From contig DAOMOX010000001.1 of the NCBI GenBank assembly GCA_035444565.1, positions 450,335 to 514,334 of the forward strand: a stretch of 64,000 nt of DNA, given 5' to 3'. Shown here one piece after another: positions 3,662 through 63,488 of this stretch (positions are counted from its first letter, which is position 1; each line of letters opens with the position of its first letter). The notes beneath the pieces were generated by a model. That model saw only the letters and a list, made by a program, of their open reading frames with translations. It searched no databases and was not told the origin of the DNA. The position numbers were made by a program, and so were the translations under genes. Source of the DNA: Candidatus Dojkabacteria bacterium. GTDB taxonomy: Bacteria; Patescibacteriota; Dojkabacteria; B142; OLB20.

Positions 3662-3754
3662 ATCTATGGATGTAGCGAAAGAAACATACGAGAGGGAAAC
3701 TATTAGCTGACGTCTAATGGATAGTGTATGATATTGGTCGATTTTGTTTTTTGA

Positions 3755-3967: not shown

Positions 3968-3983
3968 TAAAAACAGAATGATG

Positions 3984-4030
3984 TTGACTAGAAAATTTTT
4001 TACGAATATAATATCCCCATATAGGGGATA
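3984..4030 (+). promoter_or_regulatory. sigma70-like promoter with a CsoR-type operator palindrome
   Basis: TTGACT (3984-3989), a 17-nt spacer and TATAAT (4007-4012). This is followed directly by the inverted repeat TATCCCC-atata-GGGGATA (4012-4030) overlapping the likely transcription start, 4 nt before the csoR ATG. Confidence 0.55.
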
Positions 4031-4033
4031 ATT

Positions 4034-4312
4034 ATGAAACAAGATAAAAGATTTAAAACAACTCCAAAAGACAAGGCCCTCCATAGGATTAAAATCATCC
4101 AAGGCCATTTGTCAGCGATAGAGGAAATGATTAACAACGACAAATACTGTGTCGATATTGTGCATCAATCTAGAGCTGTGCAAAAAGCATTAAAGCAGCT
4201 TGATTTGCTACTTATCGAGAACCATCTTAAAACATGCGTCGTACACCAAATCCATAACCACGAAGAAATACGAACCACAGAAGAGTTATTAAAATTATTT
4301 GAATATAAATAA
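4034..4312 (+). CDS. csoR: CsoR/RcnR-family metal-sensing transcriptional repressor (copper-sensing type)
   Basis: 92 aa. It has the CsoR signature helix-bundle with ligand residues Cys (YCVDI), His (VHQS) and Cys (KTCVV), and it is the first gene of an HMA/copA operon. Confidence 0.8.
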   Translation: MKQDKRFKTTPKDKALHRIKIIQGHLSAIEEMINNDKYCVDIVHQSRAVQKALKQLDLLLIENHLKTCVVHQIHNHEEIRTTEELLKLFEYK

Positions 4313-4314
4313 AA

Positions 4315-5748
4315 ATGAAAAAAAATAAAAACGCTAAAACAATTTATGTGGAAGGAATGCATTGTGCATCATGCGAGTTACTCATCGAAAAAACACTTGA
4401 AGAATATCCGGGTGTCAAACAAGTTGATGCTTCATTGGAAAAGGGTCAGGTGAAAATCGTATCCGACAAAAGTGATTCTGTAGATATTGAAAAACTAAAT
4501 AAGGAATTTAAAGAAGCTGGTTATAAATTCAGTAATAAGCAATTTCCCAAGGAAAGCTATAAGTTAATTGAATTGACTGATGCCGGGATCGAGATAAACA
4601 GAGATAAATTTTATGAATATTTAAAAATATTTGGAATTCTCGTCTTTGTGTTGGTTCTTGTTATGTTAATCAATAATTCCAATATTGGCAGATATGCAGG
4701 TGTGAATGTAAATTCATCTCTACCTGCATTCTTGGTCCTTGGTATTGTCGCTGGCTTATCTAGTTGCGCTGCTTTGGTTGGAGGATTATTACTGGTCATG
4801 ACTAAGCAATGGAATGATTTATACATTACTGACAAAACAAATAAACTCAAATTTCAACCTCATATCTTATTCCACACTGGACGGTTAGTAGGTTACTTCG
4901 TTTTTGGAGGACTATTGGGATTACTTGGCCAGGTAGTTTCAATAGGAAGTGGAACATCTTTTGCAATTGTCATCATTGCGGTTTCTGTCGTTATGTTGGT
5001 TCTGGCATTGCAAATGATCGGAGTCAAACAGTTGCAAAACCTTCAGGTAAAAACTCCAAAAGTAATTAGTAAATTTATTACAAACGAATCGAATTTTTCA
5101 GGGAAATATGCCCCATTTATTCTTGGTGCATTGACGTTTCTACTTCCATGCGGATTTACATTGATTGCACAAGCCGCTGCTCTAGCTTCTTCAGGGTTTC
5201 TCAAAGGTGGTTTGATTATGTTGCTATTTGCTATCGGAACATTACCAATATTAGGTGGGATTAGTTTGACTGGAGTTAAATTCAACACAAAGCCGAAACT
5301 CACCTCGATGTTTAATAAAACGGCAGGAATTTTAATTGTCGTTTTCGCGATTTATACAATAAACAGTCAACTAAATGTTCTAGGCTTGAAAAGCTTAAGC
5401 GATTTGGAACTCAGAAGTAATAATACCGCCACGGAAAAAGTTGATCAAGAAGTTTCCGACAATCCCGTGATTGATGAAAATGCACAGAAATTAATTATTG
5501 TTGCAGATGATTTTTCTTATATACCACAAGGCTCAATGACAATAGAAGCCGATAAACCAACAGTGTTAGCGGTAAACAATAAAGGTGTACAAGGTTGTGG
5601 AAGATTTATGGCAGCCAGAGGATTAATCGATAATTTTGTAGAGTTGGACGATGGTTGGAACTATGTTGAATTAACTCCAAAGAAAGGCGTTTATAAACTG
5701 ACATGTACCATGGGCATGGTACGTCCTGTGACAATCACGGTTATTTAA
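4315..5748 (+). CDS. HMA-domain membrane protein (DsbD_2/CcdA-like thiol membrane domain), putative copper handling/transfer protein
   Basis: An N-terminal HMA domain (GMHCASCE = GMxCxxC) is followed by a 6-8 TM domain with two conserved membrane Cys (SSCAAL, LLPCGF) and a ~100-aa soluble C-terminal domain. It lies between csoR and copA. Confidence 0.55.
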   Translation: MKKNKNAKTIYVEGMHCASCELLIEKTLEEYPGVKQVDASLEKGQVKIVSDKSDSVDIEKLNKEFKEAGYKFSNKQFPKESYKLIELTDAGIEINRDKFYEYLKIFGILVFVLVLVMLINNSNIGRYAGVNVNSSLPAFLVLGIVAGLSSCAALVGGLLLVMTKQWNDLYITDKTNKLKFQPHILFHTGRLVGYFVFGGLLGLLGQVVSIGSGTSFAIVIIAVSVVMLVLALQMIGVKQLQNLQVKTPKVISKFITNESNFSGKYAPFILGALTFLLPCGFTLIAQAAALASSGFLKGGLIMLLFAIGTLPILGGISLTGVKFNTKPKLTSMFNKTAGILIVVFAIYTINSQLNVLGLKSLSDLELRSNNTATEKVDQEVSDNPVIDENAQKLIIVADDFSYIPQGSMTIEADKPTVLAVNNKGVQGCGRFMAARGLIDNFVELDDGWNYVELTPKKGVYKLTCTMGMVRPVTITVI

Positions 5749-5767
5749 TTATTAACAACTCATTAGA

Positions 5768-8194
5768 ATGAAAAAAACATTTGATGTTATTGGCGTACAT
5801 TGTGCTTCATGCAAATCTCTGATTGAAAGAAATGTTAACAAGCTGGATGGAATTAATATGGTGAATGTTAACTTTGCGGCAGCCAAAATGATGGTCGATT
5901 ATGATGAAAAGAAAGTCACTCTTGAAGAAATTGCTAAAGCGGTAGCGAGTGCTGGCACTTACAAATTGGTGAAGAATGATGACGAGGTTGTTCTTGCGAG
6001 CCCGGGAGAAATTAATAAATCTTCTCACATGAAAGAAATCGCAAAACCAGCACATGGTGAAACTGGCCACAATCACGCAGAAATGCTTAGAGCTGATGAG
6101 TATAAGTTGCTGAAGAAAAAAACAATACTTGTGGGCCTCGCGAATATTCCGTTCCTGTTCGTGATGATAAATATGCTTTTCAATAAAAGCGAAGAGATGA
6201 TGAGCTATCTAGGAATGATTAAACTAGAAAATTTTGGAATGTCTTTGAATCTTGATTGGGTTGTACAATTTCTCATTGCAACATTCATACTTTTCTGGGG
6301 AGGGAGTCAGTTTTTCAAGAGTGCGTGGACTGCATTGAAAAATAAAACAGCTAACATGGATACGCTTATCGCTCTGGGTACGTTCGTGGCATGGTTGTTC
6401 TCAGCGGTTGTGACATTTATTCCTCAAATATTCACAGATATCAAGGCAGAACCATTCTATGAGGCAGTAGGTTTTATAATATTTTTTGTGTTGTTGGGAA
6501 GGTTACTCGAAGCAAAAGCAAAAGGCAGCGCAAATCAGGCTGTTAAGAAATTAATGGAAATCCAAGCAAAAGATGCCTCAGTTATTCGTGATGGAGTAGA
6601 GGTGAAGGTTCCTATTAATGAAGTTGTAATTGGAGATATAGTAGTCGTAAGACCAGGAGAGAAGATTCCAGTTGATGGGGTTATTACCCATGGCACTAGT
6701 ACGATTGACGAATCTATGGTCACTGGAGAATCCATGCCGGTGGAGAAGTCTACAGGAGACAGTGTAATTGGTGCAACCATAAATAAATCTTCTAGCTTTC
6801 AATTTCGAGCGGAAAAAGTGGGCAAAGATACTTTACTCTCTCAAATCATTAAATTAGTTGAGGATGCCCAAATGAGTTCAGCTCCGATTCAGAAATTGGC
6901 AGACAAAATTTCTGCAATTTTCGTACCGATGATAGTAGTTATTTCAATTATGGTGGCCATATTTTGGTTGTTAATTGCACCGGAGTTGGGAATAGTTGGA
7001 GACATCTCTAGTGTTCAGTTAGCCATATATATCTTCGCAACAATTTTAATAATTGCTTGTCCATGTGCTTTGGGATTAGCTACACCAATCGCGGTGATGG
7101 TTGCTACCGGAAAAGCTGCAACCAAAGGAATATTAATCAAAGACGCAGAGGCATTCGAACTAGCATCCAAAGTCGACACAATTGTTTTTGATAAAACTGG
7201 TACTCTTACAAAAGGTGAGGTTGAAGTTGTCGAAATTGTTATAGTAGAGAATTTTAAAAACAAAAACAATCTACTGGATAGTTTGAGAATGGATGAATGG
7301 AACGAAGATACTTTGATCACGTTATCTGCGGCACTGGAATATAATTCGGAGCATCCCTTATCCGAAGCCATAGTAAAATTTGCCAATGATAAGAAATTAG
7401 ATTTCGCTAAAATCAAAATCGACTCATTTGAAAATCATGAAGGCAAAGGGGTAGCAGGAATTATGAAAGGGAAAGAAATTGTTATAGGAAACGAAAAGTT
7501 AATGGATAAATTTAAAATTGACTCTATAAAAGATGCGAATTCAGATTTAAAGGATAAGTTGGAGAAGTACAGAAATGAAGGCAAAACTATCGTTTCGATC
7601 GCTTATGGCAAGGAAATTATTGGATATTTTGCACTAGCAGATGCATTGAAGCCTGAAGCGAAACAGTTAATCAGCCAAATAAAAGAGAGAGGAATTCGAG
7701 TAATAATGCTATCTGGCGACAATGAACAAACTGCTAAGGCGATTGCAGAAAAGTTAGGAATTGATGATGTAATTGCGAACGTTTTGCCACACGAGAAGTC
7801 TGAAGTAATACAGAGACTGAAAAATGAAGAAGACGGTAAGATAATCGCTATGGTTGGTGATGGGATTAATGATGCTCCTGCACTTACTTTGGCAGATGTA
7901 GGCATCTCTATGGGTACTGGCACAGATATTGCTATTGAATCAGGGGATATCGTGATTGTCGGAGGAAAAATCGAAAAAGTGCTCGAAGTCCTGGATATTT
8001 CGTCAAAAACACTCAAGATTATCAGGGAAAATCTAATCTGGGCATTTGGATACAATATTATTGCCATTCCGATCGCAGGTGGATTGTTATATCCATTTAT
8101 AGGGCTTTTACTTTCTCCAGTAATCGCTAGCGTTGCTATGGCTTTCAGTTCTATCTCTGTTGTGTTAAACAGTTTAAGATTGAGGTCCGCATAG
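5768..8194 (+). CDS. copA: copper-translocating P1B-type ATPase
   Basis: N-terminal HMA (GVHCASCKS), a His-rich linker, the TM CPC motif ([13 protein letters not shown]), DKTGTLT phosphorylation site, [10 protein letters not shown] hinge and 8 TM helices. Confidence 0.95.
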
Positions 8195-17195: not shown

Positions 17196-17753
17196 TCAAT
17201 CCAACTCTTTAGTTTTTCGCAGATGATTTACAAGAATTGCAACAGCTGCACTAATTAGTACAATATTTTTAATAATATACTGTCCCTCAAGCGAGAATCC
17301 GTAGGGAAATTTTGTAAATACTGTATCGGTCAGTGTAATAAATGGAGTAAATGTGCCTCCCATATGGAGTATAAATATCCAAAAAGTAATTTTCGTTAGT
17401 CTTGGGATTAGAAACATAATCCCCAAAACTGTTTCCCAAACTCCTAAAAAGATAAAAAATGGCTCTCTCGGAAGGAAATAAATTGAATTTGCTACCAAAT
17501 CTGCAGCTGGACTTGAGTCGAATGGTTTTAGAATACCAAACCAAATGTAAATGATGGCGATCGAAATCCTCAGAAACCAATCCGAATAATTATTAAAAAT
17601 TGTATAAACCTTTTGTTCAACGGAATGTAGATTCATTTTTCTGAGTAATAAGTTAGAACAAATTATAATAATAATTAGCTTTAATGTTAAGTTTTTTGAA
17701 AGTGAGATTCTAAATACTTTGTTACGATTCATTGGAGAAAATAAAACTAGCAA
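17196..17753 (-). CDS. DoxX-like membrane protein
   Basis: The 4-TM segment LRISIAIIYIWFGILKPFD...FLGVWETVLGIMFLIP resembles DoxX (R...lG..f...G..K......ElvgG). Confidence 0.4.
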   Translation of the reverse strand: MLVLFSPMNRNKVFRISLSKNLTLKLIIIIICSNLLLRKMNLHSVEQKVYTIFNNYSDWFLRISIAIIYIWFGILKPFDSSPAADLVANSIYFLPREPFFIFLGVWETVLGIMFLIPRLTKITFWIFILHMGGTFTPFITLTDTVFTKFPYGFSLEGQYIIKNIVLISAAVAILVNHLRKTKELD

Positions 17754-17822
17754 TTACTAATATTTACTACTCCAATTCCTTGTGTTAGGATAAATTAAAC
17801 AATTAATTATTACCCCAATTCA

Positions 17823-19070
17823 ATGTTAAGAAGATTTTTCACCGTTCTCACTGGAGGATTGTTTTTGTTTATAGTATTTCCTTTCGGTAACGTAGATGCG
17901 CTTGTTATCGAGAGCGTAAAAGATGATACTCAAATCGTAGTTACAAATGATGTTGATGATGATTTGTTGTTAAAGGGTGAAGGTATGATCACTGTCTATG
18001 GGGATGTGAACGGTGATTTAATAATTCTAGGAGAAACAGTAAAAGTAACTGGTGATGTAGAAGGGAATGTTTATATTTTCGGAAGTACAGTAACCATAGA
18101 AAGTATTGTTGGTAAGAGTGTATACGTAATTAGTGGTACTACTTTTTTGAATGGTGAAGTTTATAGAGATGTATATCTAATGGGTGGAAGTGTTCATTTG
18201 AGTGGCCCAGTTAAAGAAGATGTAATCATTGCAGGAGGAGATGTTTATGTTCAAGGTGAAGTAGGAGACGACATAAGAGCTTTTACAGGAACAATGCGAG
18301 TTAATACTACTGTAGGTGGAGATATTGTCTCTGCTAGTGGAAATACAATTATTGGAGGAACGGTTCAAGGTAGTGTGATTTCTACTGGAGCAACTGATTT
18401 GCAAGATTCTATTGTTGAAGGAGATTTTGTCGCTTACACTGACAAAAATGATGTTGTTAAATATTCTGAAAGTACAATACAAGGAGAGCGTTCAATCAAA
18501 GGATATGAGCAGTTTGGGGAGTTCTTTAAAACTAACAATACTTCTATCACAAGCACCTTAATTGAAGATATTTGGACAAAAACATTCTGGTCTATGTTTC
18601 AATGTGTCGGAGCTGTGATTTTAGGGTATCTGCTTTTCAAATTTGCCCCAGTTAGACTCGAGAATACATTGGCAAAGATGAATGACACTCAGGAAGTCCT
18701 TAAAAGTTTCTTGATTGGATTCTTCGCTTTCCCTGTCGGAATATTCATAGTTATCTTCTTAGCATTATCTATAATTGGTTGGCCTATCCTGAAAGTAATA
18801 GTATTGCTAGCATTGCTTGCGATTTCTGTGGTGACACCCATCGCTGGAATCATTTTGGGAAGAAAAATTCTACCATTAATTGGTAGTAAGAGAAGATATG
18901 TAATTCCATTAACTCTGGGTGTTGTGATAATTCAAATCATCAGTACAATCCCTATTCTTGGATGGTTTTTCTATCAGAGTGTCGTATTTGTTGTAATTGG
19001 AGCAATGCTTCGTATGCAGTGGGGTAAATACCAAATTGCACAGAAGATGACGGTAAAGGTAACAAAGTAA
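17823..19070 (+). CDS. bactofilin-like beta-helix repeat protein fused to a C-terminal polytopic membrane domain
   Basis: Signal peptide, then ~170 aa of G-x-V-x-G-(D/N)-V repeats (GDVNGDLIILGETVKVTGDVEGNVYIFGSTVTIE...), followed by 5-6 TM helices. Confidence 0.4.
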   Translation: MLRRFFTVLTGGLFLFIVFPFGNVDALVIESVKDDTQIVVTNDVDDDLLLKGEGMITVYGDVNGDLIILGETVKVTGDVEGNVYIFGSTVTIESIVGKSVYVISGTTFLNGEVYRDVYLMGGSVHLSGPVKEDVIIAGGDVYVQGEVGDDIRAFTGTMRVNTTVGGDIVSASGNTIIGGTVQGSVISTGATDLQDSIVEGDFVAYTDKNDVVKYSESTIQGERSIKGYEQFGEFFKTNNTSITSTLIEDIWTKTFWSMFQCVGAVILGYLLFKFAPVRLENTLAKMNDTQEVLKSFLIGFFAFPVGIFIVIFLALSIIGWPILKVIVLLALLAISVVTPIAGIILGRKILPLIGSKRRYVIPLTLGVVIIQIISTIPILGWFFYQSVVFVVIGAMLRMQWGKYQIAQKMTVKVTK

Positions 19071-53415: not shown

Positions 53416-55323
53416 ATGAGTAAGAAAGTTCTAATCGGAGTAGCATGGCCATATGTTAATGGTGATATACATGTTGGACATTTGGGAGGGTATTTGCTTC
53501 CTGCAGATATAGTTGCGAGATTTCATCGACTCAAAGGTGATGATGTCTTAATGGTATCTGGTTCTGATTGTTATGGTACGCCAATCACTGTTGAGGCCGA
53601 CAAAAAAGGATTAAAGCCAGAAGAGGTTGTAGAGATGTATCATAAGAAAGATTTAGAACTTTTCAAAATGTACGGGCTGGACTATAACTTGTATACCAAA
53701 ACAACCACTCAAAAACACAAAGAAGTGGTACACGAGGTTTTCTTGAAACTGTTGGATAACGGCTATATCGAAAAAGGCGTAATGCAACAATATTACGCAA
53801 TTGATGATAATCAATTTCTACCCGACAGATATGTCGAAGGAACCTGTCCTTACTGTAATGCAGGCAACCAAAGAAGCGATCAATGTGAAAGCTGTGGAAG
53901 ATGGTTGAAAGATGGAGAGCTCATTGACCCAGTGAGTAAATTAACTGGTTCAAAAGTCACTTTGAAGGATACAGAACATTACTTCTTGAATTTTGAGAAA
54001 TTAGAATCGCAGTTGCGCGAATATCTTGATGCAAATAAAGAAAATTGGAAGAAGTGGGTTTGGAATGAAGCAAATGGTTGGCTAAAAGAAGGTTTACAGA
54101 GAAGGGCAATCACTCGAGATATGGATTGGAGTATTGATTTACCGATTGAAGAAATCAAAAAGCGTGACGAGAGCAAACAACTGAAAGATTTTACTGGAAA
54201 ACATATTTATGTTTGGTTTGAGGCTGTGATTGGATATCTCTCAGCTACGAGAGCTTGGTGTGAGATGGAAGAAGGAACTAGTGACACAATTTTCAAAAGA
54301 GACGCGGGACAGAGCAGAAATTGGGAAGATTGGTGGAAAAGTTCAGATTCTGTTATCTATAACTTTATGGGTCAAGATAATCTTGTCTTTCATGCTTTAA
54401 TGTGGCCAGGTCAATTGATGGGTTTAGATGATGGATATCAACTGCCAAAGTTCGTTGTAGTTAATAAGTTTTTGAATTACGAAGGCAAAAAGTTTAGTAA
54501 AAGTAGAAACTGGACCATAGATTCGAGAGTAATTGCAGAAAAGTATGGGGTAGATTTGGTCAGGTATTATATTGCTAGGAATTTACCGGAAAACAAAGAA
54601 GGCAATTTCACTTGGGAGGATTTTGTGGCTTCAGTAAACAATGAATTGGTAGCTAATCTCGGGAATCTTGTGAATAGAACATTGACTTTTATTAATAGTA
54701 AATTTAATGGCGAATTAGAATCTGAAAATTTCAAGCCAGATATGACTCTGAGTCAAACAGCTTTGAAGCTTATGATAAAAACGAAAGCTTTCTTATTTTT
54801 TGAGGGTATAACGGAAAAGGAAAGGGAATCAGGAGAAAAGGATATGGTTTATAATCCAGAAATAAACAATTGGCTAGGAAGTGAACAATTTGAATATTTA
54901 AATCGTTTTACTGAACTTCAAAATGGAAGTAATGGACCATGGCTAGTTAATGCATTGGACACAGTTATGGGTTATTCGAGATTAGCAAATCAATACTTTG
55001 ATGCAACGAAAGTTTGGGAGCGTGTGAAAGAAGGCAAAGATGGGAAAGACCAGGCTCAGGAAATTTTATTAAATTTAGTAAATGTCCTGTATGATCTCTC
55101 AATAATAATGTATCCATTCATGCCGGAAACATCTGGCAAATTATTAAGAATGTTGGGACGAGAAACCATTAAAACTGAATTGGGTTCAGATATGTGGAAA
55201 TCAGTATTTGATGAGGATTGTACTAGGCAACTAATCACACATCTAAAACTCAGTGAAGTAGAACTTCTGTTTGACAAACTCGATCCCGAAAAAGTCTTGG
55301 CTGAGAAAGATTCTACTGATTAA
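53416..55323 (+). CDS. metG: methionyl-tRNA synthetase
   Basis: HIGH (PYVNGDIHVGH), the zinc knuckle CPYCNAGNQRSDQCESCG, KMSKS (KFSKSRN), and an anticodon-binding helical domain. Confidence 0.95.
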   Translation: MSKKVLIGVAWPYVNGDIHVGHLGGYLLPADIVARFHRLKGDDVLMVSGSDCYGTPITVEADKKGLKPEEVVEMYHKKDLELFKMYGLDYNLYTKTTTQKHKEVVHEVFLKLLDNGYIEKGVMQQYYAIDDNQFLPDRYVEGTCPYCNAGNQRSDQCESCGRWLKDGELIDPVSKLTGSKVTLKDTEHYFLNFEKLESQLREYLDANKENWKKWVWNEANGWLKEGLQRRAITRDMDWSIDLPIEEIKKRDESKQLKDFTGKHIYVWFEAVIGYLSATRAWCEMEEGTSDTIFKRDAGQSRNWEDWWKSSDSVIYNFMGQDNLVFHALMWPGQLMGLDDGYQLPKFVVVNKFLNYEGKKFSKSRNWTIDSRVIAEKYGVDLVRYYIARNLPENKEGNFTWEDFVASVNNELVANLGNLVNRTLTFINSKFNGELESENFKPDMTLSQTALKLMIKTKAFLFFEGITEKERESGEKDMVYNPEINNWLGSEQFEYLNRFTELQNGSNGPWLVNALDTVMGYSRLANQYFDATKVWERVKEGKDGKDQAQEILLNLVNVLYDLSIIMYPFMPETSGKLLRMLGRETIKTELGSDMWKSVFDEDCTRQLITHLKLSEVELLFDKLDPEKVLAEKDSTD

Positions 55324-55334
55324 TCTCACTATAA

Positions 55335-56195
55335 ATGAAAAACTCTAAATTACTCCAATACTTTGAGGAAAAATTTGGTAATGTTGACTCTTTGTTCGAT
55401 ACCCATACTCATTTGATGAGCCTTTCTGATGATGAGCTTGACGCCACAGTTAAAAGAGCCAAAGATAATGGAGTGAATTATATGGTTGATGTTGCAGTTG
55501 ACCTGGAAACATCTCTCAAAACCCTGCAAAAACACAAGAAATTTCCTGAAATAATTTTCCCAACTGTCGGAATAGATCCGGAAGTAGTTGTTCCTGGGTC
55601 GGATTTGTATGATGATAGTATCGATGAGAAAAAGATTGACCAACTATTACGCGAACTTGCACAATTAGTTGAAGAAAACAAAGAAGATGTTTTAATGATC
55701 GGTGAGTGTGGACTTGATTATTATTGGATAGAAAAGCAAAACCTTACTGATGAGGAAAAAGAGCGAAGTAAATCTCTTCAGAAGAAATTGTTCATCGGAC
55801 AACTTGAGATATCTAGCAAATACAGTCTCCCGTTGACAATGCATCACCGCGATTCACTAGATGATTGCTTGAAGTTTATTCTTGAGAGTGGGTTGGACTT
55901 ATTTGGGATCTTTCACTCGTTTACAGGAAATCTTAATGATGCAAAGAATGCCATTGATAGTGGTTTTGCAATAGGAGTTAATGGGATTGCAACTTACAAA
56001 TCAGCCGAAGAATTAAGATTTTGTATTCATGAAATTGCTGGCGAGTTTGAAGCACTTCTTGATTTGTATAAAAATAATATTTTTCTAGAAACAGATGCAC
56101 CTTTTTTGCAACCGCGAGGTTCAAAGACTAAAATAAATGAAGCATCAAATATTAAATTAATCTACGATTTTCTTGCTAATGGACAGACTGACTAA
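55335..56195 (+). CDS. TatD-family metal-dependent hydrolase/DNase
   Basis: DTHTHL, GECGLDYY, TMHHRDS, FHSFTG and the LETDAPF blocks. Confidence 0.7.
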   Translation: MKNSKLLQYFEEKFGNVDSLFDTHTHLMSLSDDELDATVKRAKDNGVNYMVDVAVDLETSLKTLQKHKKFPEIIFPTVGIDPEVVVPGSDLYDDSIDEKKIDQLLRELAQLVEENKEDVLMIGECGLDYYWIEKQNLTDEEKERSKSLQKKLFIGQLEISSKYSLPLTMHHRDSLDDCLKFILESGLDLFGIFHSFTGNLNDAKNAIDSGFAIGVNGIATYKSAEELRFCIHEIAGEFEALLDLYKNNIFLETDAPFLQPRGSKTKINEASNIKLIYDFLANGQTD

Positions 56196-57123
56196 TATAG
56201 ATTTAACTTCTCAGATAGATAAGACAAAAAGAACAAGAGAAAGAGTGCATAAGCTAGAGCAATTAAATATTTTTCCAAAAGAGTCTGTAACCGATACAGA
56301 AGGGATGATAATTAATCTGTGCAAAGAACAAAGATGGGTTGTAAATCCTAAGTCCGATAATATTCCGGACAGCTTTTTTGACCGAGATATTGTCTCTACA
56401 ACTCAATCTCTGGGAAGGATTGATACCATCACAAACATTCTCGATCAGAATCTTAACATCAAACATAATTGGTCCAGGCTCATTACATACATTGACCTAG
56501 TAAAGCATTTAAACGACACGCTTCAGGTGCGATTGAGGTATGAGCTTCTAGAGAATAATGTAGTTGTAAAATGGATAGTCGTGGATTCTTCAAATCCCGA
56601 GGAAAGCGTATATATTTTGATAGCTCACTCAGAGGAAATATCTAACTCATGGGAACAATCCTTTCTACAAATTGACTCAACCAACAATTCCGTTTCTATA
56701 AAAGTTTTCAAATATTTCATGTTCGACGGAGACGGAATGATGCTCGAGGATTATTTGTATACGGAACTCGATAATGACAGATTAGAAGCAGATTTGAATA
56801 GCAAAAAATTAAATTTAAAAATCACCGACAACTTTGCGGGTGTTTTTGTACAAGATAGGTTTACATTACCACTTGAGGGCGATGATACCATGGGCGTAAT
56901 TCATTTTGAAGAAGTGATTGACCTGATTAAAAACGAATTAAAAAATGTCCCAGACAAGCTTGCTGTTTTAAAAAGATTCAATCTCAAGAATCATGAAATT
57001 CGTGTAGAACTGGAATCTCATATCGGGATGGAGAATCAATCTCCAAAGCTTAACCATATAGTAGCGGAATTAGAAGATATGGTAGAAGAAGTTAAAGGTG
57101 CTGATATTTTAATTTCCAAGTAA
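56173..57123 (+). CDS. hypothetical cytoplasmic protein
   Basis: 316 aa with no motif. It overlaps the TatD 3' end by 23 nt. Confidence 0.4.
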   Translation: MLMDRLTNIDLTSQIDKTKRTRERVHKLEQLNIFPKESVTDTEGMIINLCKEQRWVVNPKSDNIPDSFFDRDIVSTTQSLGRIDTITNILDQNLNIKHNWSRLITYIDLVKHLNDTLQVRLRYELLENNVVVKWIVVDSSNPEESVYILIAHSEEISNSWEQSFLQIDSTNNSVSIKVFKYFMFDGDGMMLEDYLYTELDNDRLEADLNSKKLNLKITDNFAGVFVQDRFTLPLEGDDTMGVIHFEEVIDLIKNELKNVPDKLAVLKRFNLKNHEIRVELESHIGMENQSPKLNHIVAELEDMVEEVKGADILISK

Positions 57124-57187
57124 AAAAATTTTGCAACTGCAGAAAATTGGTAGTAGATTATAGTCATATTATTAATATTTATTATTT

Positions 57188-58474
57188 ATGAAAAATACAA
57201 TCGAGCCTAACAAAATTAAGGCACTTATCACTTTTGTAGTCGTACTTAGTGTGATTACCTTTTCTTCAATCGGGTATTTAATTGGTAGGGGAAGTGGGGA
57301 TGGAATTACAACAGGGCTTACAGAAATTGAAGATTCCTCAGCAGCTGTTTACAATAATGTGCAAAAAGGGAATGTAAAATATACAAAGCCACAGTATATT
57401 CCAGTCAGGGAGGCAATGCCTTTATATTTTAAGTATACAGGTGTAAATAATACGAATGACTTGCCAGATTGGAAAATAAATTTCTGCGGTGTTGTCAAAA
57501 GATATCCGGATACTCAGGAAGTAGCTACTTCAAGAAGATTTAATACTGTTGGCTCGTGTAAGATTACTGTAAATGTAACAGTTAATGGAAAAACCGAAAC
57601 AGTAGTGTTCTATCAGAAAGTTTTAAAGATAAAAAGTACTGTTGATACCGAACTTCTTACAAATGGCGATGCATATCTTGGAGAAGATTATACTGTGGGA
57701 ATATCTTTGGATGGAAAAGTAAATGCTGCGTATAAAGGCGTAGACTGGAATTGGTCAGCGACAGGGGATTGTGAAGCGGGTTGGAGCCCATCGATTGGGG
57801 TCGATGCCGTATTAGTACTTAAATTGCTAAATCCTGGTGTTTGTACGGTCAAAGTGGTGGGTTATGTATACTATGACACATACGCAATTAAAGCAGTAGA
57901 GTCTGCACAAATCAATATTTTACCTGCGAGAGTAGTACCAACAGATGAATTGGAAGTAACAGAAATGCCAACTCCAGTGCCTTCTGTTGTAATTCCTACC
58001 CCTGCTCCTTCTATAGTAGGAGTATCCCCAACACCAGCAAGTAATCTTGCAGCAATGAGTTTGTTCCCCTCAACTTTTAAAACATCACCTAATGGTGAGT
58101 TTAAAGTTGCTATTATGGCACAACCTCCTTCCACCAACATCACAGGATATGTTACCAGTTATCAGATTCGCCTCAAGGTCCAAGGCGCATCAATTGTTGA
58201 GGGTTCATTTGTAGAAGCCGGTGGTAATTTACTAACAATTGGTACGTGTAATACATCTAATAGTGCAATCACTACAAATGAAGTATGTGTAGACGTTTCA
58301 ACTATGTCTGGATACATTCCAAATAATCAAGTATTGGGTAGTTTCACAATCAAGGCACAAACGACAAACCCAATAGTAGTTTCAACGATTCCAGGTAATG
58401 CTTATCTTTCAAATGGGCAATTGCAGTTGGCTGAAAATATTAAACTTGCGAGTTACACAGTTTCTCTCCCTTAA
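57188..58474 (+). CDS. secreted/membrane-anchored protein with W-x-W / paired-Cys repeats and a Pro/Ser/Thr linker
   Basis: N-terminal TM. DWKINFCGVV..GSCKITVNV and VDWNWSATGDCEAGW..GVCTVKVVG are related to the repeats in 45695..46393. There is a PTPVPSVVIPTPAPS linker and a C-terminal beta domain. Confidence 0.45.
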   Translation: MKNTIEPNKIKALITFVVVLSVITFSSIGYLIGRGSGDGITTGLTEIEDSSAAVYNNVQKGNVKYTKPQYIPVREAMPLYFKYTGVNNTNDLPDWKINFCGVVKRYPDTQEVATSRRFNTVGSCKITVNVTVNGKTETVVFYQKVLKIKSTVDTELLTNGDAYLGEDYTVGISLDGKVNAAYKGVDWNWSATGDCEAGWSPSIGVDAVLVLKLLNPGVCTVKVVGYVYYDTYAIKAVESAQINILPARVVPTDELEVTEMPTPVPSVVIPTPAPSIVGVSPTPASNLAAMSLFPSTFKTSPNGEFKVAIMAQPPSTNITGYVTSYQIRLKVQGASIVEGSFVEAGGNLLTIGTCNTSNSAITTNEVCVDVSTMSGYIPNNQVLGSFTIKAQTTNPIVVSTIPGNAYLSNGQLQLAENIKLASYTVSLP

Positions 58475-58511: not shown

Positions 58512-61500
58512 TTAGTCAGGCCACCTACTATACATAATTGTTTCCGCTTCTCCTTCTCTTTTCGGTAAAGACTGCCAGATTTTCTCAGTTAGAAATGGAA
58601 TAAAAGGATGTAACAATTTCAGATATGTTTCTAGAGAATATAGTATCAACCATTGGGCTGTAAATCTTGATTTTGACTCCTCTTCTGATGTGTTGATTGG
58701 GTTTCCTTCACGATCTTTTGTGTAAAGTCTAGTTTTGATTTTTTCCAGATAAATATCAGCGAAATAATGCCAGAATGATTCATAAAGTTCGTCAGCGGCG
58801 ATTCCAAATTTAAATTCGTTCAATCTCCTGGTAGTTTCTTCAATTAGTTTTTCAACATGATCCAACATTTCAGTATCATCTTGTGTGAACTCTAATTCGG
58901 ACCTGTCCGAATTAATCAATTTGTCAGCTTTATCTTCGATGTTAAAGAGTACAAACTTGGATGCATTCCAGATTTTATTGCAGAAGTTGCGGTTAGATGA
59001 TACTTTCTCTTCATAAAGACGATAATTTTGACCGGCTGAGTTACCTTTGACAAAGCTATATCTCAATGCATCTGTTCCATATTTTTGCATCATTTCGAAA
59101 GGATCGATACCATTACCTTTGGATTTGCTCATTTTAATTCCATTCTTATCAAGTACCAACCCATGTAGATACACGTCTTTGAAAGGAACAATTTGCTCGT
59201 CGGAAGTATTAGGGTTTAGCTTCTTCGCTCTATACGGATTGAGTAACATCATTCTGGTCACCCAGAATAATAAAATATCCCATCCAGTTTCCATAACTTG
59301 GGTAGGGTAGAATTGCTCAAAATCACCTTCCTTCACCATCAAAGTTAGATATGGCCATTGTCCAGATGAGAACCATGTATCAAGTACATCTTCGTCTTGA
59401 AGCCATTCTGATTTTATTAAGGAATAATTTCGAAGTTCCAGATTTTTTGGGTCATTTTCTCTAGATTGCTCAGGAGTTAAATTATTTAATTTTCTCTCGA
59501 ATATTCTAATTATGCCTGCATGTGTCACAACCAATGGGTTTTTATAGCCTGAGGTTTTCAACCAAATGATAAACTCTTCAATTCTCTTTTCGACTGCTTC
59601 TATTTTCTCGCCTTTTTCAAGCTCTGGTTGGAAATCCATATTATTTTTTGAAGCCTCTTCAGGATGTTTGTTAGTAAATTCTTCCCAAGTAAGCCCTTCT
59701 AAGTTGCCGAAATTCCTTTCTTTGAGTAAATCGTTCTCGATGATTTTCAATCCCAATTTCTCATTAACAATTTCAGCAGTTTGACGTGCTCTTTTTAATG
59801 GAGAGGTGATAATCACATCATATTTAGAATTGAGTTTTTCAATTGCGTTTTGAGCTTGTTTTTGACCGATGTCATTTAAATCGATATCAGTGAATCCATG
59901 GAATTTACCAAGTTTGTTGTATTCTGTCTCTCCATGTCTCAGGACTGAAATATTGATTTGTCCATTTAGATCAGAGTTTGAGTTGTTAGGATTATCATGT
60001 CCTACATGTATTAATCCCTCATAATCTTCGGGATTATTTATAATTTTGTTTCCAATTTTCTCTTTTACTTCACCTGTTTGGGTGATGTATTGCGTATGTT
60101 CGCCTTTATACCAGACAGGAACTCGATAACCCCACCATAGTTGTCTCGTGATGCACCAATCTTCCTGACTTTCCATCCATTGTAGATATGTTTTCTTTTT
60201 GCCCTCAGGCATGATTTCAGTTAATCCTTCTTCAACTAATCTTTTTGCTTCTCTTTTTAATGGTTCTGTATCCACAAACCATTGATAGGAGATAAGCGGT
60301 TCTATAGGGTGTTTGCATCTCTCACAAATTCTAATTCTGTTTTCATAATTTTCGTCTAAGTATACTAGCATTCCATTTGCTTTCATGTCTTCTAACATCA
60401 CTTTTCGTGCTTCCTTTACATTCATACCTTCATATTTGCCGGCTAGGTGATTCATTTTGCCATTGAAGTCTATGACCTGCTTCTCTGGGAAAGCTTCCTC
60501 TGGATGACGTTTGGCTATATCCCAATCTTCCGGGGAATGTGCGGGAGTGACTTTTACCATGCCAGTTCCGAAATTTTCATCGACAGCGTCATCGGCGATA
60601 ACATTTATTTTGGATGTGCCAAGTAAAGTTTTAACTTCAAATTCTTTTCCAACATACTCTTTAAATCTCTCATCGTCTGGGTCAACTGCAAGTGCTGTGT
60701 CTCCGAACTTGGTCTCCGGCCTGACTGTGCCTAGAACGAAACCATTAGTATAGAATTTGTCGTCAGGGAAGTCTTTGAAGTTTATAAAGTGAATACCCGC
60801 ATCTCTTTTTTTTGATTCAGCAACTTTCCAAAGCTTTGTTAATTCTTGATTTAAATCTCCCTCAAAATCAGGGTTAGAAAGTATTAAGCTGAATTTTTTA
60901 TTTAGCCTCATCATAATTGCATACGGTTTGCCGACTATTACATCTCCTTTAGTTAACTTTTCGTTATCATAACCAATACAATGTACAACCATTTCTCCAG
61001 TTTCAATTTGGTATCCGCCATCAATTGCGCCTATTGCAAATGGATAAATTTCTTTACCGTCCGGGCTTGATGACCTCTCAAAAATCCATTTAACTTCTTC
61101 CATTTGTGAGAAGTCATTTTTAATTCTTATCGCATCTTTTTCGGGATCTACAAATCCGTATTTAAAGTAGAAGAAAGGGGAAACTGAGTCTTTGAACTCC
61201 GTGTCGATATCTGCAAGAGCAGACTGACATCTGGGGCACCAGTTGATTATCCTTTTATCGCGATATACGAGCTTGTCCTCATACATTAACTCGAATGCCT
61301 TTAGAACTTCGTCTACAATCTTGGGTTCTAGAGTAAATAATTCTCTATCGAAATCTGCAGATAAACCAATATTTTTTTCCTGCCTACGAGCATTTTCAGA
61401 GTTTTTGATACAAAAAGCATAACAACGTTTATAGAATTCTTCTCTGCCTAATGCTTTCTTTGATAATCCTTCTTTTTCGAGTTCTTTCTCAAAAACTACT

Positions 61501-61796
61501 TCAGTCAAAATTCCTGCGTGGTCTTTTCCAGGTAGGAGCAAAACCTTTTTTCCCCTCATACGGTTGTATCTACCCATCAAATCTTGATAGGCATATCCAG
61601 ACATATGACCTAGGTGCAGATTCCCATTTGCATTTGGAGGAGGTAGGACAATTGAAAAAGTTTCTCGATCTATGTCGTTGGCGGTCGATAATTTTTTTTC
61701 AGATTTGTATTCGGGCGAATAGAATCTATTCTCAAGCCAAAAAGCTAAAATTTCCTCTTCAGTTGATTGTGGTTGATATGGTCCTTTGGGAAGCAT
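58512..61796 (-). CDS. valS: valyl-tRNA synthetase with an inserted histidine-phosphatase (PGAM-like) domain
   Basis: HIGH (NANGNLHLGHMSGY), the editing domain TVRPETKFGDTALAVDPDDERF, WWGYRVPVWY, DVLDTWFSSGQWPY, and KMSKS (GIKMSKSKGN). It is 1094 aa, against ~880 typical. Confidence 0.95.
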   Translation of the reverse strand: MLPKGPYQPQSTEEEILAFWLENRFYSPEYKSEKKLSTANDIDRETFSIVLPPPNANGNLHLGHMSGYAYQDLMGRYNRMRGKKVLLLPGKDHAGILTEVVFEKELEKEGLSKKALGREEFYKRCYAFCIKNSENARRQEKNIGLSADFDRELFTLEPKIVDEVLKAFELMYEDKLVYRDKRIINWCPRCQSALADIDTEFKDSVSPFFYFKYGFVDPEKDAIRIKNDFSQMEEVKWIFERSSSPDGKEIYPFAIGAIDGGYQIETGEMVVHCIGYDNEKLTKGDVIVGKPYAIMMRLNKKFSLILSNPDFEGDLNQELTKLWKVAESKKRDAGIHFINFKDFPDDKFYTNGFVLGTVRPETKFGDTALAVDPDDERFKEYVGKEFEVKTLLGTSKINVIADDAVDENFGTGMVKVTPAHSPEDWDIAKRHPEEAFPEKQVIDFNGKMNHLAGKYEGMNVKEARKVMLEDMKANGMLVYLDENYENRIRICERCKHPIEPLISYQWFVDTEPLKREAKRLVEEGLTEIMPEGKKKTYLQWMESQEDWCITRQLWWGYRVPVWYKGEHTQYITQTGEVKEKIGNKIINNPEDYEGLIHVGHDNPNNSNSDLNGQINISVLRHGETEYNKLGKFHGFTDIDLNDIGQKQAQNAIEKLNSKYDVIITSPLKRARQTAEIVNEKLGLKIIENDLLKERNFGNLEGLTWEEFTNKHPEEASKNNMDFQPELEKGEKIEAVEKRIEEFIIWLKTSGYKNPLVVTHAGIIRIFERKLNNLTPEQSRENDPKNLELRNYSLIKSEWLQDEDVLDTWFSSGQWPYLTLMVKEGDFEQFYPTQVMETGWDILLFWVTRMMLLNPYRAKKLNPNTSDEQIVPFKDVYLHGLVLDKNGIKMSKSKGNGIDPFEMMQKYGTDALRYSFVKGNSAGQNYRLYEEKVSSNRNFCNKIWNASKFVLFNIEDKADKLINSDRSELEFTQDDTEMLDHVEKLIEETTRRLNEFKFGIAADELYESFWHYFADIYLEKIKTRLYTKDREGNPINTSEEESKSRFTAQWLILYSLETYLKLLHPFIPFLTEKIWQSLPKREGEAETIMYSRWPD
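59487..59960 (-). other. histidine phosphatase (phosphoglycerate-mutase family, branch 1) domain embedded in valS
   Basis: ISVLRHGETEYNKLGKFHGFTDIDLNDIGQKQA...YDVIITSPLKRARQTAEIV...ERNFGNLEGLTWEEF...AVEKRIEEFI...PLVVTHAGIIR is the full RHG...R...E...H catalytic set. It lies between the ValRS WWGYRVPVWY and DVLDTWFSS blocks. Confidence 0.8.
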
Positions 61797-62635
61797 TATT
61801 GTAATTCGTAAAGCAATGAAATCGCGCCGTATAGACTGGCGTCATCTCCAAACTCTGTAATTTTGAGAGTTGGTTGTGGCAAGTACTCGACATAATTTGC
61901 TAATTCCATTCGTAGTAAATTTAATAAGAATTTTCTGTGCACAATTATACCACCTGAGAAAATAATTACAGGCGGTTTAAAAAGTGTAACAAGGTTATTT
62001 AAACCGATTCCTAGGTATTGTACCATTTCATTCCAAATTGGGTCACTGTCCTCTAGGCTGGCTAGTGAATGTATTCCGGTTTTTTCTTGTATAACAGCTC
62101 CTGTTGCATATGCTCCGAGTAATCCAGGTGTGTGGAAATGATTTCTATGAGTGCCATGTGAGTTTACAATCATATACTCAGGCTCTAATGGTAATTCTAA
62201 AAATTTATCTCCAACTCTGTGAACGTAAGTGGCTCCAAATCCAGTTCCTATGATGCAATATAAATACCTGTTTTCGTTTTTAGCAAGTCCGAAATATCTC
62301 TCGGCTCGTGCAGTTGCTACTGCGTCATTGCGCATAATTACTTTAGTATTGAATTTCTTGGCGATATCCTCTAAAAGTGGTTTGTGATTCCAGTCTGGTA
62401 AATTTGTGAGTAAATCAATTTTTTCGTTGCTGACACTTCCGGGTAGTGCAATAGAAATACCTTCTATCTTTTGCCATTTGCTGAATTTTTCTATTTGGGA
62501 TGTCATTTTTCCGAGTGCCTCATCATAAGACTGGGGCGTGGAAATAGTCTCTTTACCACTAATCGTAGGTTTGTTTAATTTGTCAATTTTTGCGAATGCG
62601 GTTTTTGTTCCGCCTACATCAATTGCTACATACAT
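61796..62635 (-). CDS. ROK-family sugar kinase / glucokinase-like protein
   Basis: MYVAIDVGGTKTAFA (N-terminal ATPase motif), ..IIGTGFGATYV.., actin-fold. The ROK Cys zinc motif is absent. Confidence 0.6.
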   Translation of the reverse strand: MYVAIDVGGTKTAFAKIDKLNKPTISGKETISTPQSYDEALGKMTSQIEKFSKWQKIEGISIALPGSVSNEKIDLLTNLPDWNHKPLLEDIAKKFNTKVIMRNDAVATARAERYFGLAKNENRYLYCIIGTGFGATYVHRVGDKFLELPLEPEYMIVNSHGTHRNHFHTPGLLGAYATGAVIQEKTGIHSLASLEDSDPIWNEMVQYLGIGLNNLVTLFKPPVIIFSGGIIVHRKFLLNLLRMELANYVEYLPQPTLKITEFGDDASLYGAISLLYELQ

Positions 62636-62828: not shown

Positions 62829-63488
62829 ATGCTAGTTTCTTTGATTGATTTATTATTTCCCAGAATGTGTGTGTTCTGTGATACGCAGAAAACGCTTTTA
62901 TGTGAAGAGTGTAAAAATACTAAACTTGAGTATTACAAAACACATTTTTGTCATGTTTGTCGTAGAAATTTTGAAGATGATTTTGTTCACATAGAATGTC
63001 AGGAAAGAACAAATTTAGACGGGGTAATCGTTGTTGCTCATTACAATAAATTTGCAAAAATCCTCATTGAAGAAATGAAGTATAACCTTTATTTTTCTGT
63101 TTCTGCTGAAATTGGTTATCTTATGAAAATAAAATTAAGCGAATTCAATATTAAATATGATGTTGCCGTTCCGATTCCGCTTCATAGATTTAAAGAAAAT
63201 TATAGAGGTTTCAACCAGGCCGAACTATTATCCAAAGTAATCACATCTAGTGTTGATAATTGTATAAAAAGAACAAAAAATACTAAATCACAGGTAAATT
63301 TAAATAGGAAAGAACGTCTTGCAAATCTAAAAGATGTTTTTCAACTTAAGAAAGAAATCGCATATAAGTCGGTACTTCTTGTAGACGATGTTATGACAAG
63401 TGGTAGTACTCTCGAAGAATGTGCAAGAGTCTTGAAAAAAGCAGGGGTAGAGAAAGTTTATGGGTTGGTTTTCGCGAGGGGTGATTAG
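62829..63488 (+). CDS. ComF-family protein (phosphoribosyltransferase domain with N-terminal zinc finger)
   Basis: CVFCDTQKTLLCEECK...FCHVCRR is a 4-Cys finger. The PRTase motif is LLVDDVMTSGSTLEE. Confidence 0.75.
   Translation: MLVSLIDLLFPRMCVFCDTQKTLLCEECKNTKLEYYKTHFCHVCRRNFEDDFVHIECQERTNLDGVIVVAHYNKFAKILIEEMKYNLYFSVSAEIGYLMKIKLSEFNIKYDVAVPIPLHRFKENYRGFNQAELLSKVITSSVDNCIKRTKNTKSQVNLNRKERLANLKDVFQLKKEIAYKSVLLVDDVMTSGSTLEECARVLKKAGVEKVYGLVFARGD

Follow-up and report, generated by a model that had tools for sequence, protein, structure and literature searches.

Accessory and nested domains of aminoacyl-tRNA synthetases (aaRSs) are usually tRNA-binding or editing modules or, in eukaryotes, signalling modules. 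In the class Ia synthetases, such as valyl-tRNA synthetase (ValRS; 1GAX) and isoleucyl-tRNA synthetase (IleRS), the CP1 editing domain and CP2/CP3 are hydrolytic or accessory domains placed within the Rossmann fold. A related arrangement is the curated NCBIfam family NF040702, 'isoleucine--tRNA ligase, N-acetyltransferase domain-containing', in which a class Ia synthetase carries an embedded unrelated enzyme domain; a full-text literature search found no paper describing this architecture. A phosphoesterase attached to a tRNA 3'-end enzyme is known from the HD domain of bacterial CCA-adding enzymes, which in Escherichia coli has phosphatase, 2'-nucleotidase and 2',3'-cyclic phosphodiesterase activities and offers a precedent for the healing of tRNA ends. 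In addition, a branch-1 histidine phosphatase (HP) is fused to a nucleic-acid enzyme in the bifunctional Rv2228c-type protein PRK07238 (RNase H plus acid phosphatase), and the fold also occurs free-standing, as in the PhoE/CobC/PspA-type phosphatases (PDB 9mmh, 6e4b, 6nru, 4ij5, 4pz9).

The protein from a Candidatus Dojkabacteria bacterium described here, a ValRS with a nested histidine phosphatase (ValRS::HP), differs from each of these systems. Unlike the known connective peptides, its CP3 houses an entire enzyme that is foreign to the synthetase and belongs to an unrelated superfamily; this insertion is polymorphic between strains, and the enzyme also exists as a free-standing gene. Host and module differ from those of NF040702, and probably the site as well; GNAT modules do occur at the same ValRS site in relatives, as in the NF040702 IleRS. 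The phosphatase has a different fold from the HD domain, and the Dojkabacteria CCA-adding enzymes carry an HD domain plus a nested HP. PRK07238, which ranks second among the NCBIfam matches of the insert (108 bits; cutoff 326), is an end-to-end fusion with another partner, whereas the domain here is nested. With the free-standing phosphatases it shares the fold (TM ~0.8), the length of ~180 aa and the catalytic residues, but it sits inside a synthetase and scores under every NCBIfam equivalog cutoff. A complete phosphomonoesterase nested in CP3 appears to be previously undescribed, and full-text literature searches found no description of a ValRS with a nested phosphatase, in line with the novelty claimed in the earlier note.

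The valS::HP gene was delimited by ORF and profile searches at 58512..61796 of the window (the whole stretch of DNA analysed, 64,000 nucleotides), on the minus strand, as are all its features given below. The ORF has an ATG start and encodes 1094 aa in one continuous frame, exactly as it had been called before. The product is the housekeeping ValRS of the Dojkabacteria organism, with a histidine phosphatase nested inside it. The whole protein scores above the NCBIfam cutoffs of two valS equivalogs (NF004349, 746.2 bits against 704; TIGR00422, 719.7 bits against 612.1), its Pfam tRNA-synt_1 match (1e-106) is split into two stretches, and the top Foldseek match of its AF2 model is ValRS 1GAX (E = 8e-51, TMt 0.73). 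The N-terminal ValRS part (aa 1-609; 59970..61796), assigned from the tRNA-synt_1 stretch at aa 16-580 and the match of the AF2 model to 1GAX, contains the first Rossmann half, the CP core, CP1 (the editing domain), CP2 and the N-terminal portion of CP3. The C-terminal anticodon-binding domain (Anticodon_1, PF08264; aa 974-1093; 58518..58877) was found with Pfam.

The HIGH, KMSKS and editing motifs had all been described as intact. Motif searches located the HIGH signature as HLGH (aa 61-64; 61605..61616) and KMSKS (aa 888-892; 59121..59135), and the editing domain carries TVRPET (aa 357-362; 60711..60728; motif search and alignment) and PAHSPED (aa 418-424; 60525..60545; alignment). The editing-pocket residues of Thermus thermophilus ValRS (R216, T219, K270, T272, D276 and D279) appear to be largely matched: TVRPET, K415, T417 and D424 are kept and align with R216/T219, K270, T272 and D279. 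The exception is the position of D276, which is occupied by Ser421. The presence of the phosphatase explains why annotation pipelines label such proteins merely 'class I tRNA ligase family protein'.

Motif search and structure comparison place the block WWGYRVPVWY (aa 554-563; 60108..60137) at the end of the CP2-CP3 linker, which in yeast IleRS lines the pocket for the tRNA CCA end. The stretch after it (aa 564-609; 59970..60107; alignment and AF2) is the N-terminal portion of native CP3, which forms beta-hairpins and ends ...VGHDNPNNSNSD. The inserted segment (aa 610-796; 59409..59969) was delimited by alignment with the insert-free orthologues P0020, P0024 and P0028; at its junctions, NSNSD is followed by LNGQ and SLIK by SEW. 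The second Rossmann half resumes with DVLDTWFSS (aa 803-811; 59364..59390; motif search). The spacing between the two blocks, previously put at ~235 residues instead of ~40, was measured at ~239 residues, compared with ~35 in T. thermophilus ValRS and ~40-45 in insert-free Dojkabacteria relatives. The AF2 model of the full protein has a pLDDT of 91.2, with residues 607-610 as the sole segment below 50, and a flexible linker was assigned to aa 601-612 (59961..59996) from the model and a comparison with locus L083. In this model, the synthetase and phosphatase parts are shown to be intact and are predicted to fold independently, with a short flexible linker between them. Modelling, which had been proposed as a check, folded both parts confidently, with the insert in peripheral CP3 and the Rossmann strands uninterrupted. 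The insert is nested in ValRS, as stated earlier, but it sits in a surface loop of the variable CP3 connective subdomain, a known peripheral insertion, and not in the catalytic core proper, where it had been placed; the strands of the Rossmann core are spared. An intein or other mobile self-splicing insert was rejected, as Pfam gave no Hint-family match, the C-terminal junction has no His-Asn and the splice-junction residues are absent.

The inserted segment contains a His_Phos_1 domain (PF00300; aa 618-793; 59418..59945; Pfam and AF2), with a Pfam match of E = 1.1e-42 and 146.3 bits against a gathering cutoff of 21.7, covering positions 3-181 of the 194-position profile. The earlier note had expected this family beside tRNA-synt_1, at aa ~610-775, and both families were matched. 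The catalytic loop LRHGET, with R620 and the nucleophile H621, was located by motif search (aa 619-624; 59925..59942), and the codon of the second catalytic histidine, H759 in VVTHAG, by alignment of the embedded copies (59520..59522). All six catalytic residues (R620, H621, N627, R669, E693 and H759) are present; these positions are kept in 45-47 of the 47 embedded ValRS copies aligned, and the hexad RHNREH is retained by nearly all phosphatase copies in ValRS, IleRS and CCA-adding enzymes. With a dN/dS of 0.058 for the phosphatase and 0.059-0.074 for ValRS, the two parts are under equally strong purifying selection. An AF2 model of the domain by itself (pLDDT 92.9) has TM scores of 0.79-0.84 to 9mmh, 6e4b, 6nru and 4ij5. 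Pfam, catalytic residues, dN/dS and AF2 agree with the proposal of an intact, catalytically plausible phosphatase in frame, and the nested domain is apparently a complete and active branch-1 histidine phosphatase.

The phosphoglycerate-mutase label that had been attached to the domain was not upheld. The cutoffs for dPGM are missed (PRK14115, 63.3 against 305; TIGR01258, 62.5 against 81.7), with a match to the N-terminal ~100 residues only. Alpha-ribazole phosphatase CobC (TIGR03162, 124.6 against 162.9) and phosphoserine phosphatase PspA (NF045917, 84.4 against 350) were rejected as identities in the same way. The closest characterised structures are small-molecule phosphatases, namely a riboflavin-pathway HFP, alpha-ribazole-5'-P phosphatase, phosphoserine phosphatase and GpgP. 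Judged from the missed cutoffs and from these nearest structures, the domain is not a phosphoglycerate mutase. The module is mildly acidic (pI ~5.7-5.9), as are its free-standing relatives, and no sign of an acquired basic RNA-binding surface was seen on it.

Another 46 cluster representatives, drawn from independent assemblies, have the same architecture, and for this reason it is not regarded as an assembly artefact. Identical junctions are found in independent JGI, ENA, NCBI and Logan assemblies, and a 97%-identical strain carries the same ValRS/HP junctions; together with the dN/dS of the phosphatase, this led to the rejection of a chimera or a frameshift. An inactive spacer, a regulatory pseudo-enzyme or an artefact of this type, which has nothing in its favour beyond being possible a priori, is extremely improbable given these junctions, the conserved catalytic residues, the purifying selection and the lack of intein features in the Pfam and junction analyses.

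The architecture recurs in relatives, one of the points on which an alignment had been suggested, although not in all of them, as some are insert-free and others carry other modules. In their CP3, a phosphatase, a PF06821 serine hydrolase, or GNAT or HAD-like modules are found; some relatives have several of these in tandem and others none at all. Module presence or absence varies between strains, and the ValRS alleles are recombinant mosaics; in L083, for example, a 536-nt serine-hydrolase module takes the place of window positions 59961-59983. These comparisons identify CP3 as a hotspot for insertions in Dojkabacteria ValRS. The nested phosphatase is not unique to this gene, but represents one of the states that this modular site takes across the lineage. 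This adds to what was known of CP3, the fold of which differs between species and is Zn-binding in Thermus, and of aaRSs, which have been reported to be favoured hosts of domain insertions in general. A scan of genome contigs with the full protein mostly matched generic ValRS motifs, with L002 as the only Dojkabacteria locus, and its matches do not amount to a taxonomic census.

The same phosphatase is also found outside ValRS. Relatives with an insert-free ValRS encode the orthologous phosphatase in a gene of its own that directly follows valS, in the order PRTase-valS-HP-TatD-metG. Three independent contexts (L001, L087/L088 and L089/L090) have a free-standing HP of the same clade beside a valS that lacks the insert, in L087/L088 at 256 nt downstream on the same strand; at some insert-free valS loci, no HP is present within 10 kb. 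A 159-aa gene co-oriented with the free-standing HP of L001 was considered as a serine-hydrolase module and rejected, as it is hydrophobic, membrane-like and unrelated. CCA-adding enzymes with a nested HP of the ValRS clade (CCA::HP) form 14 clusters, which are also Dojkabacteria-like; no valS was found in their gene neighbourhoods, and their assemblies (GCA_964393185.1 and GCA_054921735.1) are not the ones that contain the ValRS loci compared. The HD motif is fully conserved in CCA-adding enzymes both with and without HP. A role of HP as a substitute for a degenerate HD domain was therefore rejected, and the phosphatase is additive rather than a replacement for a lost phosphoesterase. IleRS carries nested phosphatases of separate clades at the same CP3 site, often in tandem. 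From the best 150 of 28,609 HP matches, 17 long proteins that combine HP with a different partner were profiled: in 16 of them the partner is ValRS, IleRS or a CCA-adding enzyme, and in the remaining one it is kinase-like.

Since the same phosphatase adjoins or sits inside other tRNA-end enzymes in relatives, a link to tRNA charging is probable, of a kind that has not been described before. Genomic context likewise lends support to the suggestion of the earlier note that the substrate may be tRNA- or nucleotide-related. Tentatively, the best explanation is a nested, active phosphomonoesterase that would work together with the enzymes that use the tRNA 3'-CCA end. A small PhoE/CobC/PspA-type phosphatase gene, still separate downstream of valS in relatives, would have become nested in the tip of CP3; the route could have been a tandem duplication of valS-HP and then two deletions that kept the reading frame, and ValRS alleles may afterwards have been swapped through homologous recombination. 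Tethered directly after the CP2-CP3 linker, which lines the A76 pocket, the phosphatase may act on a terminal 2'/3'-phosphate on tRNA or on a nucleotide-type phosphomonoester arising there, and taking this phosphate off would ready the tRNA end for CCA repair and charging. A broader version, in which tRNA 3'-end healing by removal of terminal 2'/3'-phosphates is built into ValRS, IleRS and the CCA-adding enzyme, all of which require a clean CCA end, and in which CP3 is a cassette site where quality-control modules for tRNA or aminoacyl-tRNA are swapped between strains by recombination, is unlikely; if true, it would add to aminoacylation a modular layer of tRNA repair and proofreading not known before, with phosphatase, esterase and acetyltransferase modules.

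Several observations count against a role at the tRNA end: the unrelated modules at the same CP3 site, the small-molecule substrates of all the nearest characterised relatives, the lack of a visible RNA-binding surface, the HD motif kept in CCA::HP and the insert-free valS loci without HP. The chemically unrelated modules (serine hydrolase, GNAT, HAD-like) fit a merely permissive site. The main alternative is a housekeeping or house-cleaning phosphatase of the ordinary kind, acting on small molecules and lodged in CP3 as a permissive loop, with no mechanistic tie to aminoacylation; nesting in a large, essential and constitutive protein of a very small genome could then reflect co-expression, stability or a neutral ratchet. 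This is a serious possibility, if a rather doubtful one. It is favoured by the known variability of the CP3 fold and the reported preference of inserted domains for aaRSs, by the patchy, recombining distribution of unrelated modules, single or tandem, at one site, by the closest structures and by the absence of a basic surface. It leaves unexplained the conserved adjacency of the same clade to valS and metG, and does not account for its nesting in CCA-adding enzymes or for the independent nesting of unrelated HP clades in IleRS CP3. Moreover, among the 17 multi-domain relatives profiled, the partner is unconnected with tRNA in just one, and no nested domains were found in other large proteins of the window.

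The range of module chemistries at one site of an antibiotic-target enzyme, together with strain-level presence/absence polymorphism and recombination as is typical of conflict loci, would also suit self-protection, in which the CP3 modules (phosphatase, serine hydrolase, GNAT) would detoxify aminoacyl-adenylate mimics or aaRS-targeting antibiotics at the target, by analogy with MccE- and MccF-type immunity against processed microcin C. Such a role is very unlikely: histidine phosphatases act on phosphomonoesters and not on acyl-sulfamates or phosphoramidate diesters, and the free-standing orthologue and the CCA-enzyme fusions would be left unexplained. The fusion of HP to all three hosts would also be expected if it hydrolysed a shared product (pyrophosphate or AMP) and so pulled the reactions forward, since ValRS, IleRS and the CCA-adding enzyme all use ATP (the last also CTP) and release pyrophosphate. 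However, no branch-1 histidine phosphatase is known to act as a pyrophosphatase, and CCA addition does not yield AMP, so that product removal has very little probability. Under the favoured explanation of a phosphomonoesterase at the tRNA 3' end, ValRS::HP is a concrete candidate for a tRNA-linked phosphatase function in minimal-genome bacteria, of interest as the phosphatase adjoins valS when free-standing and recurs within IleRS and CCA-adding enzymes. It is also a clean natural example of how a neighbouring gene turns into a nested domain and of an essential enzyme with an insertion hotspot that varies between strains, and it points protein engineers to permissive insertion sites in class I synthetases.

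The window contains no second valS or HP copy. Across relatives, the orthologous locus is arranged as PRTase-[ROK]-valS...TatD-metG. In the window, the conserved synteny markers are a ComF-like phosphoribosyltransferase gene upstream of valS (62829..63488, plus strand) and, on its far side, TatD (about 55392-56126, plus strand) and metG (53416-55323, plus strand). A ROK-family gene directly upstream of valS (61796..62635, minus strand) is syntenic in L082, L083 and L084. Its stop codon overlaps the valS start, and for that reason the two genes probably form one operon.

The valS gene of the window (58512-61796, minus strand) is a single open reading frame with an ATG start that encodes a valyl-tRNA synthetase (ValRS) of 1094 amino acids. 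In Pfam, the synthetase domain tRNA-synt_1 is split into two stretches (E = 1e-106), Anticodon_1 is found at residues 974-1093, and a histidine phosphatase domain (His_Phos_1, PF00300; E = 1.1e-42, 146 bits) lies between both synthetase stretches at residues 618-793, nearly full-length at profile positions 3-181 of 194. Two NCBIfam equivalog cutoffs for valine--tRNA ligase are exceeded (746 vs 704 bits and 720 vs 612). A motif scan located HLGH (residues 61-64), WWGYRVPVWY (554-563), LRHGET (619-624), DVLDTWFSS (803-811) and KMSKS (888-892), in agreement with the positions in the earlier note. WWGYRVPVWY and DVLDTWFSS, the blocks flanking the insert, are ~239 residues apart, compared with ~35 residues in Thermus thermophilus ValRS and ~40-45 in insert-free relatives. 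The nested histidine phosphatase (HP) that the earlier note had proposed, together with the pair of Pfam domains that it expected, is thus borne out far beyond chance by the reading frame, both profile collections and the block spacing. The editing motifs, also described there as intact, appear largely so, except for one pocket position, at which Ser421 replaces D276 of T. thermophilus. This residue is part of the motif PAHSPED (60525-60545, minus strand; residues 418-424), in which D279 is retained as D424. The lineage consensus has Ala or Ser at the position of Ser421, and post-transfer editing could be altered in the lineage.

The domain is a complete histidine phosphatase, but its suggested likeness to phosphoglycerate mutase did not hold at the level of identity, as the NCBIfam cutoffs for dPGM (63 vs 305) and the pgm_1 subfamily (62.5 vs 81.7) were missed. 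The insert also falls below the equivalog cutoffs for CobC (124.6 vs 162.9) and PspA (84 vs 350). The closest solved relatives by sequence and fold are small-molecule phosphatases of ~180-210 residues with a TM of ~0.8, namely the riboflavin-pathway HFP (9mmh), the alpha-ribazole-5'-phosphate phosphatases (6e4b and 6nru), phosphoserine phosphatase (4ij5) and GpgP (4pz9). By sequence and modelled fold, HP is a putative generic PhoE/CobC/PspA-type enzyme.

The fused gene is no artefact. The 5.8 billion proteins searched include many close relatives from assemblies of independent origin (JGI, ENA, NCBI and Logan), among them a partial protein that is 100% identical to the window ValRS and annotated as Candidatus Dojkabacteria. 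The same HP is present at the same place in 46 of the 120 best matches, and the six catalytic residues R620, H621, N627, R669, E693 and H759 are kept in 45-47 of 47 embedded copies. A related strain (locus L083), with ~97% DNA identity to the window over ~10 kb, has identical HP junctions, which, with the independent assemblies, speaks against a chimeric assembly. The sole difference there is a 23-nt linker (59961-59983), swapped in-frame for a 536-nt serine-hydrolase module. Between the two strains, dN/dS is 0.058 for HP and 0.059-0.074 for the synthetase parts. The AlphaFold2 model of the whole protein is confident (pLDDT 91.2, pTM 0.76), with pLDDT below 50 only in the linker that leads into the insert (residues 607-610); among PDB entries, the model best matches T. 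thermophilus ValRS (1GAX).

The host segment of the insert aligns between residues 417 and 447 of T. thermophilus ValRS, which by homology with IleRS structures is the connective peptide subdomain CP3. The insert is therefore peripheral, in a variable connective peptide outside the Rossmann strands, and not inside the catalytic core as first thought. CP3 comprises residues 473-534 in Candida albicans IleRS and 459-526 in yeast IleRS; its topology is reported to vary among species, with a Zn-binding motif in Thermus (PMC7191050; PMC7955072). The CP2-CP3 linker directly precedes it (yeast 453-ARDWNVSRNRYWG-465; window ValRS 545-EDWCITRQLWWG-556). The linker of yeast IleRS lines the pocket that holds the CCA end of the tRNA (PMC7955072), a detail relevant to HP function.

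An alignment of 120 ValRS relatives identified the loop between WWGYRxPVWY and QDEDVLDTWFSS as a hotspot for insertions, which occupy two neighbouring sites. The hotspot is empty in about half of these relatives, including one that is 78% identical to the window protein (P0020). Elsewhere it holds single modules (HP, a PF06821 serine hydrolase, a GNAT acetyltransferase or HAD-like modules) or tandems, including hydrolase with phosphatase, GNAT with phosphatase and GNAT with hydrolase. These states are intermixed on a neighbour-joining tree of the ValRS core, and the alleles are mosaics. For example, most of the length of the relatives P0001 and P0007, hydrolase module included, aligns at 95-100% identity, but residues ~220-335 at only 35-47% and HP at 70-90%. 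Homologous recombination between alleles would be the simplest explanation for this patchy distribution.

The entrance to the editing domain holds a second lineage-specific insertion of ~120-130 residues (60762-61154, minus strand; residues ~215-345). Modelled with confidence (pLDDT ~90) as a beta-rich segment, it has no Pfam match and is missing in the class of Dojkabacteria ValRS of 750-790 residues (e.g., P0112). It is hypervariable: P0001 and P0007, elsewhere at least 95% identical, share only 35-47% identity here. HAD (P0055) or ASCH-like (P0089, P0071) modules are additionally hosted in this region by other relatives. A ValRS relative of 1431 residues with GNAT and phosphatase at the hotspot (P0058) has a precomputed match to PF04480 (DUF559, a Vsr-like endonuclease), a possible hint that some modules function in mobility.

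HP is also found in other hosts. An exhaustive HMMER search with the insert alone against 1.84 billion cluster representatives gave 28,609 matches. Among the best 150, 17 long proteins with a non-HP partner were profiled, and the partners were class Ia synthetases (15), a CCA-adding tRNA nucleotidyltransferase and a kinase-like protein. NCBIfam identified true IleRS with two phosphatase domains (P0257, P0252 and P0280) and further ValRS with HP, including a fragment (P0251), carrying three to four HP copies. The IleRS copies lie directly before the D.WF.S block, again in CP3, sometimes with additional sites; the second copy is between the catalytic and anticodon-binding domains in P0252, and a copy lies between D.WF.S and KMSKS in P0280. 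Fusions of the CCA-adding enzyme with HP were found in 14 clusters and are encoded on long contigs, and their closest insert-free relatives are annotated as Dojkabacteria. In a rough neighbour-joining tree, HP of the CCA-adding enzymes nests within the clade of ValRS and free-standing modules, and the IleRS modules form separate clades and were therefore acquired independently. Across hosts, nearly all copies have intact catalytic residues. The other large proteins of the window, MetRS included, have no nested foreign domains. Many free-standing HP relatives are tandem HP-HP proteins of ~410 residues. In one CCA-adding enzyme (P0419), the loop behind the HD domain, where HP is nested in the fusions, holds a different insert of 84 residues, and another (P0411) is ~120 residues longer than typical with no extra domain annotated by Pfam; CCA-adding enzymes may therefore also have an insertion hotspot.

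The closest free-standing HP relative (P0122, 48% identity) shares a contig with an insert-free ValRS, and two more genes of the same clade are arranged likewise near valS. The order at these loci is a ComF-like phosphoribosyltransferase gene (PRTase), valS, zero to two genes, HP, TatD and metG; on a 988-kb contig (L087), valS is followed after 256 nt by HP as the next gene on that strand. Synteny around valS is preserved in the window and L083 (PRTase, ROK, valS, two unknown ORFs, TatD and metG), with no free HP gene at either locus and the sole copy inside valS. All ValRS-embedded and free-standing valS-linked HP form one clade in the rough tree. Given this single clade and the shared locus, a neighbouring gene would have become a nested domain, or the reverse in some lineages. 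We propose that valS-HP could have been duplicated in tandem and then reduced by two in-frame deletions to give the nested topology.

The valS/metG neighbourhood, the fusions to ValRS and CCA-adding enzymes and the independent fusions to IleRS together suggest that HP is functionally associated with enzymes that bind the tRNA 3' end. From this genomic association, the favoured reading is that HP would be an active phosphomonoesterase working with such enzymes, with a terminal 2'/3'-phosphate of tRNA or a nucleotide-type phosphomonoester as the preferred candidate substrate. Against it, the hotspot also hosts unrelated chemistries, the nearest characterised enzymes use small molecules, no basic surface was seen on the HP module, the HD phosphoesterase motif is fully kept in the CCA-adding fusions, and no HP lies near some of the insert-free valS genes. 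The main rival reading, nearly as likely, is that HP serves small-molecule housekeeping and simply occupies a permissive loop. As minor alternatives, HP could detoxify antibiotics that mimic adenylates, remove PPi or AMP, or be an inactive spacer or an artefact, the last set against the intact catalytic residues and the independent assemblies.

The earlier note had regarded the architecture as undescribed, and full-text literature searches likewise found no account of ValRS, IleRS or the CCA-adding enzyme carrying a histidine phosphatase, or of the CP3 hotspot. The window ValRS belongs to the broad class of synthetases with nested accessory domains; a domain-insertion survey from 2026 names synthetases only as hosts of editing domains. 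NCBI labels proteins of this type 'class I tRNA ligase family protein', and an NCBIfam model exists for IleRS with a GNAT domain; the architecture is therefore recorded in databases but not studied. It is of clear interest to specialists in aminoacyl-tRNA synthetases and tRNA, and the question of HP function is directly testable.

The stretch from valS to TatD-metG (56173-58474, plus strand) is a variable island, with two unknown ORFs in the window and L083, large unknown genes and HP in another locus (L001), and a heavy-metal cassette (HMA/DsbD_2, P-type ATPase, MFS and metal repressor) in L084 (12868-21204); a similar cassette is present elsewhere in the window (2411-8194). At locus L085 of a Dojkabacteria genome, TatD adjoins a gene (17429-18772, minus strand) for a 447-residue protein with NUDIX and a YbaK/ProX-type aminoacyl-tRNA editing domain (PF04073), another hydrolase joined to a tRNA-related module in the lineage. 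Upstream of valS, the stop of a ROK-family gene (61796-62635, minus strand) overlaps the valS start by one base (61796), which suggests translational coupling or a single operon. This pair is absent in L001, L087 and L089 and is kept in L082, L083 and L084.
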